DNA of 64,000 nucleotides, taken from assembly GCA_051648645.1 (NCBI GenBank), contig JBOFFP010000001.1:320001-384000 (forward strand), read 5' to 3'. The translations under genes and the position numbers were made by a program. The notes beneath the pieces are model-generated. The model was not told where the DNA came from and made no database searches. It was given only the letters and a program-made list of their open reading frames with translations. Origin of the DNA: Candidatus Rhabdochlamydia sp. (GTDB taxonomy: Bacteria; Chlamydiota; Chlamydiia; Chlamydiales; Rhabdochlamydiaceae). This document shows, in pieces, positions 60,395 through 61,784 of this stretch (positions are counted from its first letter, which is position 1; every line of letters begins with the position of its first letter).

Positions 60395-60562
60395 TTAATT
60401 ACATCCCATTGTTGGGCAGCCAGTACTGCATGTCCATTCGCTTGGATATAAATTCGCATTTTCATGTAGGTTTACGGATGAGCCCATAGCCTTAAGTTCA
60501 ATATTAAGATCATATAGATCATCTTCATAATGAATGGTTTGATTAGTCTGAGAAATTTGCAT
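60395..60562 (-). CDS. lanA: Lanthipeptide precursor lanA4 (55 aa); not in ORF track
   Basis: MQISQTNQTIHYEDDLYDLNIELKAMGSSVNLHENANL-YPSEWTCSTGCPTMGCN; GGAGG RBS. Confidence 0.87.
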   Translation of the reverse strand: MQISQTNQTIHYEDDLYDLNIELKAMGSSVNLHENANLYPSEWTCSTGCPTMGCN

Positions 60563-60913
60563 AAAACCTCCATTTAATTCGCTTGTATTTTATAAAGGAT
60601 TGAAAAATAGTCTTAAATTTTTTTTTGTTATTATCAATAAAAAAAATTAACTGACTGTTTGTGTCCGTAGGGAATATTTTTTAGCTCATCGTATCTTCTC
60701 AAAAGGTTCTATGCTTTTTGAATTGAGAACACTTACTACTTTATGGACCAGAAAGCATCTGGATAAGCCGTCCTTGGCAGGTAGTTCATCTTACAGAAAA
60801 TTTGATAAATAAGATAAAAAATTTTTTATTTATCCCATAATCAGACAAGGCTATCTTTTGACAGATTCTAATGGAATCATAATAGAAAAGGATAGGAAAA
60901 AAGAGCTTTATCT

Positions 60914-61081
60914 CTAACCACAATACATCGTTCCGCAGGTAGGAGAGCATTGCCACCTAGTTGATTCTAAATCTGCATTTTCGTGTGTGTTTATAGATAA
61001 ACCTGTAATCTTGAGTTCAATATCAAGATCATATAGATCATCTTCGTAAAGAATAGATTGATTCATCTGAGAAATTTGCAT
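60914..61081 (-). CDS. lanA: Lanthipeptide precursor lanA3 (55 aa); not in ORF track
   Basis: MQISQMNQSILYEDDLYDLDIELKITGLSINTHENADL-ESTRWQCSPTCGTMYCG; GGAGG RBS. Confidence 0.87.
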   Translation of the reverse strand: MQISQMNQSILYEDDLYDLDIELKITGLSINTHENADLESTRWQCSPTCGTMYCG

Positions 61082-61216
61082 AAAACCTCCGTTTAACTCC
61101 TTTATATTTTATAAAGGATGAGATTAGTCTTAAAATTTTTTTGTTATTAATCAATAAAAAAATTAAATAAATATTTGAGCACAAAGGGAATGTTTTTTAG
61201 CTTAAAGTATGATGAG

Positions 61217-61255
61217 CATGGAATTAGGAAAAATGTCTTTTTTCTAATTCCATGA
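61217..61255 (-). terminator. Hairpin downstream of lanA2
   Basis: CATGGAATTAG-loop-CTAATTCCATG. Confidence 0.55.
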
Positions 61256-61304
61256 ATAAAGCAAAACAAGGAAATATTGTCTCTTGGCAGCCTAAGAAAC
61301 AACC

Positions 61305-61463
61305 TTACTCAAAACAGCAATTTGTCAAATTTGTAGTAGTGGTTGGAGTTAAATTCACATTTTCGTGTAGGTTTATAGAAGAGTCTACAGTCTTGAGCTC
61401 AATATCAAGATTATATAAATCATCTTCATAATGAATGGATTGATTAATCTGAGAAATTTGCAT
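61305..61463 (-). CDS. lanA: Lanthipeptide precursor lanA2 (52 aa)
   Basis: MQISQINQSIHYEDDLYNLDIELKTVDSSINLHENVNL-TPTTTTNLTNCCFE; GGAGG RBS places the start at 61463. Confidence 0.85.
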   Translation of the reverse strand: MQISQINQSIHYEDDLYNLDIELKTVDSSINLHENVNLTPTTTTNLTNCCFE

Positions 61464-61573
61464 AGAACCTCCGTTTAATTCCTCACGTTTTATAAAGAAT
61501 AAAAGTGGTGTTAAATTTTTTTTATTTTCAATCAATAAAAAAACATAGCATTTTTTGGTTGTTTACTCATCAG

Positions 61574-61606
61574 GAAATGAGGATTTCTCTAGATAAATCC
61601 TCATTT
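61574..61606 (-). terminator. Hairpin downstream of lanA1
   Basis: AAATGAGGATTT-loop-AAATCCTCATTT. Confidence 0.55.
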
Positions 61607-61625
61607 TTTTTGTAAGAGTACTGGT

Positions 61626-61784
61626 TTAACAACCAGTTGTGACGCAAGCCGGAGTGCATACCGCCCCGCTTAAATGCACATTTTCGTGTATATTCATAGA
61701 TAAGTCTATGTCTTTGAACTCAATATCAAGATCATATAGATCTTCTTTGTAGTGATTTATTTGAATACCATGAAAACTTTGCAT
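61626..61784 (-). CDS. lanA: Lanthipeptide precursor lanA1 (52 aa)
   Basis: MQSFHGIQINHYKEDLYDLDIEFKDIDLSMNIHENVHL-SGAVCTPACVTTGC; GGAGG RBS places the start at 61784. Confidence 0.87.
   Translation of the reverse strand: MQSFHGIQINHYKEDLYDLDIEFKDIDLSMNIHENVHLSGAVCTPACVTTGC

Follow-up and report, generated by a model that had tools for sequence, protein, structure and literature searches.

A lanthipeptide island in a Rhabdochlamydia genome

We analysed a 64,000-nucleotide stretch of the Candidatus Rhabdochlamydia sp. assembly GCA_051648645.1 (contig JBOFFP010000001.1, forward-strand positions 320,001 to 384,000), hereafter the window, which carries on its minus strand a lanthipeptide island of approximately 8.2 kb (53755-61986) with six intact precursor genes (lanA), one lanA relic, a lanC gene and a lanB gene lying in two frames. 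The genes follow the order lanA1-lanA2-lanA3-lanA4-lanA5, lanC, lanA6, lanB and relic lanA7, and the six intact precursors are small open reading frames (ORFs) between 58.0 and 61.8 kb that have a common leader and Cys/Ser/Thr-rich ends. An original prediction, made from the letters of this DNA, had singled out three of these precursors as carrying a nisin-like, potentially lipid II-binding ring A/B pattern, and our analysis centers on these three genes (lengths in amino acids, aa):

61626..61784, minus strand: lanA1 precursor, 52 aa, core SGAVCTPACVTTGC at 61629-61670
60914..61081, minus strand: lanA3 precursor, 55 aa, core ESTRWQCSPTCGTMYCG, motif TRWQCSPTCGTMYC at 60920-60961
60395..60562, minus strand: lanA4 precursor, 55 aa, core YPSEWTCSTGCPTMGCN, motif SEWTCSTGCPTMGC at 60401-60442

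Re-translation of the motif coordinates showed that the pattern had been read and placed correctly, as all three minus-strand ORFs fit [ST]x3C-[ST]x2C-x-Tx2C (lanA1 as SGAVCTPACVTTGC, lanA3 as TRWQCSPTCGTMYC and lanA4 as SEWTCSTGCPTMGC) and each core opens in the spacing of rings A and B, with S/T-x2-C immediately behind S/T-x3-C. Assuming that the leader is cleaved behind a conserved N-x-L, the cores are 14 or 17 residues long, with side-chain charges of 0, 0 and -1 for lanA1, lanA3 and lanA4, respectively, and they stop after the third Cys without a C-terminal Cys-Cys tail; given this cut, the description of the products as short, non-cationic and tail-less holds as well.

To gauge how readily the pattern could arise by chance, each core's own residues were shuffled 200,000 times. 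Of the shuffled cores, 1.8-1.9% showed the A/B part and about 0.006-0.011% the full pattern, figures that do not represent three independent events because lanA1, lanA3 and lanA4 are paralogues. This paralogy makes it a better test to ask what stays fixed while the remaining core drifts. The cores of lanA3 and lanA4 differ at 10 of 17 positions, none of which is C7, S8, C11, T13 or C16, and position 3 is T in one and S in the other. By our own arithmetic, 10 random changes would miss those five positions with a probability of 66/19448 = 0.003. The lanA3 orthologue P0003, from another assembly, differs at 8 of 38 leader positions and at 1 of 17 core positions, and this single core change is T3 to S, at the proposed ring A donor. 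Such a distribution of changes is consistent with selection on the lanA3 core.

Relation to the gallidermin/epidermin family

When compared with the Pfam Gallidermin model (PF02052), lanA1 scores 21.8 bits, a marginal pass over the cut-off of 21, and it is the only match in a six-frame search of its host genome (21.4 bits). This genome (G000) comprises 1.67 Mb in 12 contigs, has a G+C content of 35% and is 93% complete. Across 41 related genomes, the six-frame search matched two, G000 and G027, the latter from another family of the same order, and it matched none of 14 control genomes. A profile of the lanA family searched against 1.84 billion representative proteins returned only 15 proteins at E<=0.001. 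Five of these (P0012 and P0014-P0017) combine the same type of leader (MQIS…LYDLDIELK) with full epidermin-type cores (…ITSKSLCTPGCGNTGTGNSFCC) and, like the G027 peptide, have S-x3-CTPGC…SFCC cores in which ring B is TPGC. Among 21 family members, nine match the Gallidermin model at E<=1, with six canonical cores at 44.9-56 bits, and another relative, P0008, has already been named a gallidermin family lantibiotic by annotation pipelines. Compared with PDB sequences, lanA1 yielded nothing beyond chance hits to pentapeptide repeats (E about 0.5).

In an alignment of the 21 members, lanA1, lanA3 and lanA4 have their donor Ser/Thr and two Cys in the columns of the canonical S-x3-C-T-P-G-C, and the Leu that precedes their core falls on the Leu of the canonical N-Q-L. 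The [ST]x3C[ST]x2C arrangement at the core start is kept in 11 of 19 family representatives. The leaders of lanA1, lanA3 and lanA4 contain the box L-Y-D-L-(D/N)-I-E-(L/F)-K, which is of the F(N/D)LD type and recurs as an LYDLDIELK-type box in all copies, and upstream of it lies a conserved extra N-terminal segment, MQISQxNQ…. Judged from these comparisons, the resemblance of the three cores to the nisin/epidermin ring A/B region is homology, inherited and not coincidental, and we hold the genetic and homology part of our reading with high confidence. The nisin-type likeness asserted by the original prediction survives in its spacing, where it reflects homology to the Gallidermin family, but not in the sequence of ring B, which is TPAC in lanA1, SPTC in lanA3 and STGC in lanA4 and in none of them TPGC.

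The epidermin subgroup is marked by a LanD flavoprotein and a C-terminal …S-x2-C-C tail, and neither was found here. In the host genome there is no PF02441 match for LanD, a family matched in all 14 control genomes. The relatives G027 and G002 carry LanD, and in G027 the canonical-core peptide adjoins lanC, flavoprotein lanD (PF02441) and lanB. Because no flavoprotein was found and the cores end before the Cys-Cys tail, the simplest reading of these sequences is that the window's peptides are tail-less derivatives of an epidermin-like ancestor and that tail loss goes with loss of LanD in this genome.

Other genes and conserved elements of the island

The remaining precursors, the modification genes and a palindrome that recurs at several lanA copies are located as follows:

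61305..61463, minus strand: lanA2 precursor, 52 aa, core TPTTTTNLTNCCFE, without the A/B pattern
59976..60158, minus strand: lanA5 precursor, 60 aa, a different core, GSHGGHCTMPSNCYGCSEYC
58379..59689, minus strand: lanC, lanthionine cyclase, 436 aa, PF05147 at E = 9.7e-61
58086..58241, minus strand: lanA6 precursor, 51 aa, core SILCTGRSDCICY
57556..57828, minus strand: lanB N-terminal piece, 90-aa ORF, ending just after an A9 run at 57593-57601
54755..57553, minus strand: lanB main piece, 932 aa, in another frame than the N-terminal piece
54444..54539, minus strand: relic lanA7, leader start MQSFHDTQTSHYKEDLYDLE, a stop, then the in-frame tail CTTGCSTMWCN
61098..61118 (lanA3), 60579-60599 (lanA4), 60175-60195 (lanA5) and 54557-54577 (relic), minus strand: 21-bp palindrome TCCTTTATAAAATATAAAGGA

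The gene content is that of a class I (LanB/LanC) system. The stand-alone cyclase belongs to PF05147 and matches PDB entry 8byk at 2.4e-57 and NisC (2g02) at 1.2e-25, with the stretches GIAHG, WCYG and CHG visible in the sequence and in the alignment. The domains expected of a LanB dehydratase, for glutamylation and for elimination, are both recognised in the main piece, PF04738 at 3.7e-124 (from profile position 48 only) and PF14028 at 4.1e-48, but the gene is split over two frames across the A9 run. Adjoining these genes are the precursors, six intact and one relic, with their conserved leader and Ser/Thr/Cys-rich cores. In the relic, the leader is broken by a stop after 20 codons and the tail corresponds to the ring B/C region of the lanA3/lanA4 type. 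The orthologue of lanA2, P0006, differs from it at 1 of 52 positions, and the orthologue of lanA6, P0007, also differs at one position.

An alignment of the seven upstream regions in the window revealed a conserved block of approximately 100 bp that precedes every copy and ends in GGAGG followed by ATG. This block, with its GGAGG ribosome-binding site, and the orthologues in other assemblies indicate that the lanA ORFs are real genes, and lanA1, lanA3 and lanA4 are authentic precursor genes within a class I lanthipeptide island. A consensus scan found promoter-like sites in no excess (22 found versus 29.3 expected) and no terminator-like site between lanA genes; without a promoter-like excess, the -35/-10-like hexamers in the upstream block are only a suggestion. 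In a genome-wide search allowing up to three mismatches, palindrome TCCTTTATAAAATATAAAGGA occurred only at lanA copies. It lies approximately 10 nt upstream of the ribosome-binding site, overlaps a -10-like TAAAAT, and may be an operator or an RNA hairpin.

The genome holds eight paralogous lanA copies in total. Outside the window, contig C8 (18812-18976) carries an orphan lanA that has the same type of leader and the core NYNQTVTCATCPGQCL; its neighbours are lepA and a gene for an MFS transporter, and every lanB or lanC is far away. On contig C12 (162084-166734) there is another class I cluster, in which a LanB (intact, 1026 aa) and a LanC accompany a precursor of 66 aa that has an EVFDLDCK leader box and the end …TCAHTCATCPPPYEK, and loci similar to it are found in the same-genus genomes G003 and G006.

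Insertion site and distribution

The island is flanked by a DeoC aldolase gene and, upstream of lanA1, by a 714-aa gene that matches no Pfam family and is conserved in seven of eight same-genus genomes. This gene (669/714 aa) was considered as a part of the cluster and rejected, as none of the seven same-genus genomes that contain it shows the lanA leader family. In G002, the 714-aa homologue and a convergent DeoC gene are approximately 500 bp apart with one small DUF202-like membrane-protein gene between them, and the same gap in G006 holds two unrelated genes of 537 and 502 aa. These differing contents indicate that the lan cluster is an accessory insertion at a variable site.

LanC homologues occur in 7 of the 41 related genomes, G000 counted, and the lanA leader family in 3 of the 41 and in none of the eight other same-genus genomes. 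The named database relatives of LanC at 41-51% identity are mostly chlamydial (Protochlamydia, Parachlamydia, Chlamydiales and Rhabdochlamydiaceae metagenome-assembled genomes), and further relatives at 37-42% identity come from a Verrucomicrobia metagenome-assembled genome and from Firmicutes. The nearest homologues of the lanA peptides carry the source name Candidatus Rhabdochlamydia sp. A search of genome contigs with LanC for related loci found nothing, and a search of genome and metagenome contigs with the leader alignment gave pattern matches, none of which was confirmed by tblastn.

In three DNA runs, at least half of the words sampled from the locus were present, and the contigs of these runs match it at 90-99% identity or better, from which it follows that close strains exist. 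Over the lanA array (59950-61800), contigs of two of these runs, X1 and X3, match only the conserved leader and upstream parts, joined in another order (for example 60110 to 61450), which suggests either that the array varies between strains in copy number and core content or that short-read assembly has collapsed it. Contigs of a metatranscriptomic library cover parts of lanB, lanC and lanA6 and the whole of lanA1 at >=99% identity, a weak hint that the lan genes are transcribed, since DNA can be present in such a library. All runs were available as contigs, in which expression level and transcript ends are not readable and stretches without RNA cover are uninformative.

Proposed products and lipid II binding

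The best overall explanation of these observations, to which we assign a probability of about 50%, is that lanA1, lanA3 and lanA4 encode shortened, gallidermin-like peptides that bind lipid II. The cores would be shortened descendants of the epidermin/gallidermin-type precursors of other chlamydiae, in which the N-terminal [S/T]x3C-[S/T]x2C double ring was kept and the aminovinyl-cysteine tail was lost along with LanD. LanB would dehydrate the Ser/Thr residues and LanC would close three non-overlapping rings. In lanA3 and lanA4 we infer rings 3-7, 8-11 and 13-16, the numbering of nisin rings A and B and of the start of ring C, and in lanA1 rings 1-5, 6-9 and 11-14 (or 12-14). A protease, to which no gene is assigned, would remove the leader after the conserved N-x-L, and the resulting products of 14-17 residues without positive charge would bind the lipid II pyrophosphate through the backbone amides of rings A and B, slowing cell-wall synthesis without forming pores. 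In PMC8538299, rings A and B of nisin, epidermin and gallidermin are described as binding the pyrophosphate in this manner, and nisin(1-12) as still binding lipid II; cesin, a natural three-ring nisin variant, binds lipid II and kills without pores according to PMC10581189. We hold tentatively, at a little under even odds, that the lanA1, lanA3 and lanA4 products bind lipid II.

Several observations weigh against this proposal. To our knowledge, TPGC is nearly invariant among proven lipid II binders, and none of the three ring B sequences conforms to it. None of the cores has a net positive charge, and a cut behind the conserved Leu would leave lanA1 without the two residues found ahead of ring A in nisin. 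Glu4 of lanA4 is no objection by itself, as the subtilin motif quoted in the original prediction has Glu there. Homology at the level of family models is also uneven: lanA3 and lanA4 have no Gallidermin match at E<=10 and no match to NCBIfam TIGR03731, the lanA3 orthologue P0003 has no Gallidermin match at E<=1, and lanA1 reaches 17.4 bits with TIGR03731, under the cut-off of 29.3. The frame change in lanB within the A9 run (57593-57601) counts on the same side, as do the genes that a typical Firmicutes operon would have in its cluster (LanP, LanT and LanFEG/LanI) and that were not found here: the 93%-complete genome gave no PF00082 match for an S8 leader protease (LanP) and no PF03412 match for a C39-type LanT, and the island contains no transporter or immunity-type gene (LanFEG/LanI). 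Published work on nisin adds that nisin(1-12) is only bacteriostatic, that ring B is identical in nisin, epidermin and gallidermin, and that the N-terminal amine and Lys4 contribute salt bridges to the pyrophosphate (PMC8538299), and the potency of cesin is reported to be partly electrostatic, a point that bears on uncharged cores (PMC10581189).

Among 13 neighbouring proteins scanned at the lan loci of six chlamydial relatives there was no transporter or S8 protease, and the gene after lanB encodes a beta-lactamase-family protein in G027 and an S41 peptidase in G006. On this comparison, a minimal lanA-B-C(-D) layout looks typical of chlamydiae and not a sign of decay here alone. Two PF00664 ABC exporters are encoded 150-275 kb away on the same contig. 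Both MraY and MurG are present in the producer genome, which makes self-exposure a real issue, with no immunity gene seen in the island. That the target would be competing symbionts is speculation, and it is weakened by the fact that most arthropod endosymbionts are diderms, whose outer membrane such peptides cross poorly.

A further extension, which we consider quite improbable, is that this obligate intracellular arthropod symbiont makes the smallest natural nisin-type pharmacophores, uncharged three-ring peptides of 14-17 residues with little beyond the pyrophosphate cage, and uses them within host cells against co-resident bacteria or to tune its own lipid II-dependent septal peptidoglycan. 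Here the conserved MQISQxNQ… leader segment might direct the peptides into a secretion route of general use in chlamydiae, in a cluster without a dedicated exporter.

Alternative explanations

Among the alternatives, the one that survives best, unlikely as we judge it to be, holds that the peptides are made and cyclised but that their ring scaffold serves another use, as a signal, as a host-directed or membrane-active peptide or against some other target, the A/B spacing being merely an inherited scaffold. It would account for a ring B that departs from TPGC in all three peptides, for cores that are neutral or acidic and for the very different cores of lanA2, lanA5 and lanA6 behind one leader, as in diversifying lanthipeptide families. 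An intracellular diderm producer with no dedicated lantibiotic exporter found in its genome and no immunity genes found in its island also fits this alternative, as do the six relatives' loci without a transporter or S8 protease among the proteins scanned. On the other hand, no part of the core is better conserved among paralogues and orthologues than the ring A/B positions, these positions align with those of canonical epidermin-type relatives, and no positive evidence was obtained for another target.

Ranked just after it, and likewise unlikely, is the possibility that the island, in a genome that is itself reduced, has fallen into decay: lanB would be broken, mature lanthipeptide would not be made and the motif would be a vestige. 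The state of lanB is central to this argument. On the intact LanB paralogue of contig C12, its N-terminal piece aligns to residues 6-59 and its main piece to residues 87-1011, with the change of frame between them. One lanA is a truncated relic, LanD, LanP and a C39-domain exporter were not found in the genome, and the restriction of the leader family to 3 of 41 related genomes, with none of the eight others of the genus, also counts for decay. However, the break lies in a homopolymer, a setting in which errors of assembly or slippage of polymerase are frequent, and contigs of runs X2 and X3 that cross the A9 run each exceed the window by one letter over the stretch they span, at a position that was not located. 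Furthermore, six lanA ORFs are intact and each has its ribosome-binding site and upstream block, conservation of the core extends to orthologues, lanC is intact, and a second, intact lanB-lanC pair is available on contig C12. The RNA-library contigs on lanB, lanC, lanA6 and lanA1 point weakly in the same direction.

That the pattern is a chance feature of short, Cys/Ser/Thr-rich ORFs that are not genes, as might be argued from their length and from a family match confined to lanA1, is effectively refuted by eight paralogous copies in the genome, orthologues elsewhere, the conserved upstream block, the adjoining lanB and lanC and the shuffle frequencies.

Other features in and near the window

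At 2-15086 on the minus strand of the window lies a tandem array of five paralogous ORFs, from 365 to over 1353 aa in length, with a ToxA_N (dermonecrotic toxin N-terminal) domain. Four of them also have a Stv domain at the C-terminus, and the one of 365 aa has the look of a fragment that overlaps the adjacent ORF. These ORFs are probably an expanded family of large secreted or effector-like proteins. A 620-aa protein encoded at 23905-25767 fuses a protein kinase domain to an FGE-sulfatase domain, and just past the window end are genes for a 577-aa protein with a eukaryote-type UCH (ubiquitin C-terminal hydrolase) domain (L029:4622-6355) and for a 478-aa HAMP and adenylate/guanylate cyclase protein (L029:2241-3677).

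Comparison with known systems and significance

With the epidermin/gallidermin group (PF02052), the window's peptides share an F(N/D)LD-type leader box, a core that opens with S-x3-C and then [T/S]-x2-C, and modification by LanB and LanC; lanA1 falls just over the Pfam cut-off, and chlamydial relatives with the same leader are full-length members at 44.9-56 bits. By contrast, the window's peptides have no Cys-Cys tail and their genome no detected LanD, ring B is not TPGC, a short third ring, T-x2-C, takes the place of the C/D rings, the cores are limited to 14-17 residues with no net positive charge, and lanA3 and lanA4 are missed by the model.

Cut after the conserved Leu, lanA3 and lanA4 would have positions 3-7, 8-11 and Thr13 coincide, in the nisin numbering, with rings A and B and with the beginning of ring C of nisin. 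Their ring C would span 4 residues versus 7 in nisin, and they have no hinge and no rings D/E. Nisin(1-12) binds lipid II without pores (PMC8538299), but it and the nisin AB and ABC fragments are engineered, whereas the window's peptides are products of natural genes. Naturally shortened nisin-type peptides are also represented by cesin and rombocin (PMC10581189 and PMC10804407), both from Firmicutes, whereas those of the window are shorter, uncharged and encoded by an intracellular chlamydia. The potency of cesin is linked in PMC10581189 to electrostatics with teichoic acids, with K21 reported as important.

The literature has recorded type 1 lantibiotic-like clusters in Chlamydiae since 2010, when Marsh et al. 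reported one in Parachlamydia acanthamoebae Hall's coccus (PMC3091789). That cluster likewise combines LanA, LanB and LanC, and it was noted there as unusual and possibly acquired from Firmicutes. We find one Parachlamydia LanC to be 41% identical to the window's LanC. The LanA of Hall's coccus, however, was grouped with Bacteroidetes-type LanAs (phylogroup 6) and not with nisin-like or epidermin-like ones, and a multi-copy lanA array with A/B-ring cores is not described in the passages of PMC3091789 covered. A lanthionine synthetase was mentioned in Algichlamydia in 2024. In the literature covered, which did not extend to the supplements of the biosynthetic gene cluster surveys PMC9666466 and PMC13229535, where such clusters may be listed, we found no description of the Rhabdochlamydia island, nor any of epidermin-type precursors from chlamydiae or of A/B-ring derivatives that lack the tail.

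Provided that the peptides are produced and do bind lipid II, they would represent the nisin/epidermin binding module in a natural, minimal form, without a pore-forming tail or positive charge, and would offer both a scaffold for antibiotic design and a test of how far ring B can vary. The small, apparently chlamydial set of epidermin-like precursors, linked as it is to tail-less derivatives, points to a lantibiotic family shortened together with the loss of LanD. On the same condition, the peptides would also show that a bacterium with a reduced genome and an obligate intracellular life invests in antibacterial or self-directed peptides that are ribosomally made and modified after translation, and this would bear on competition among arthropod symbionts.

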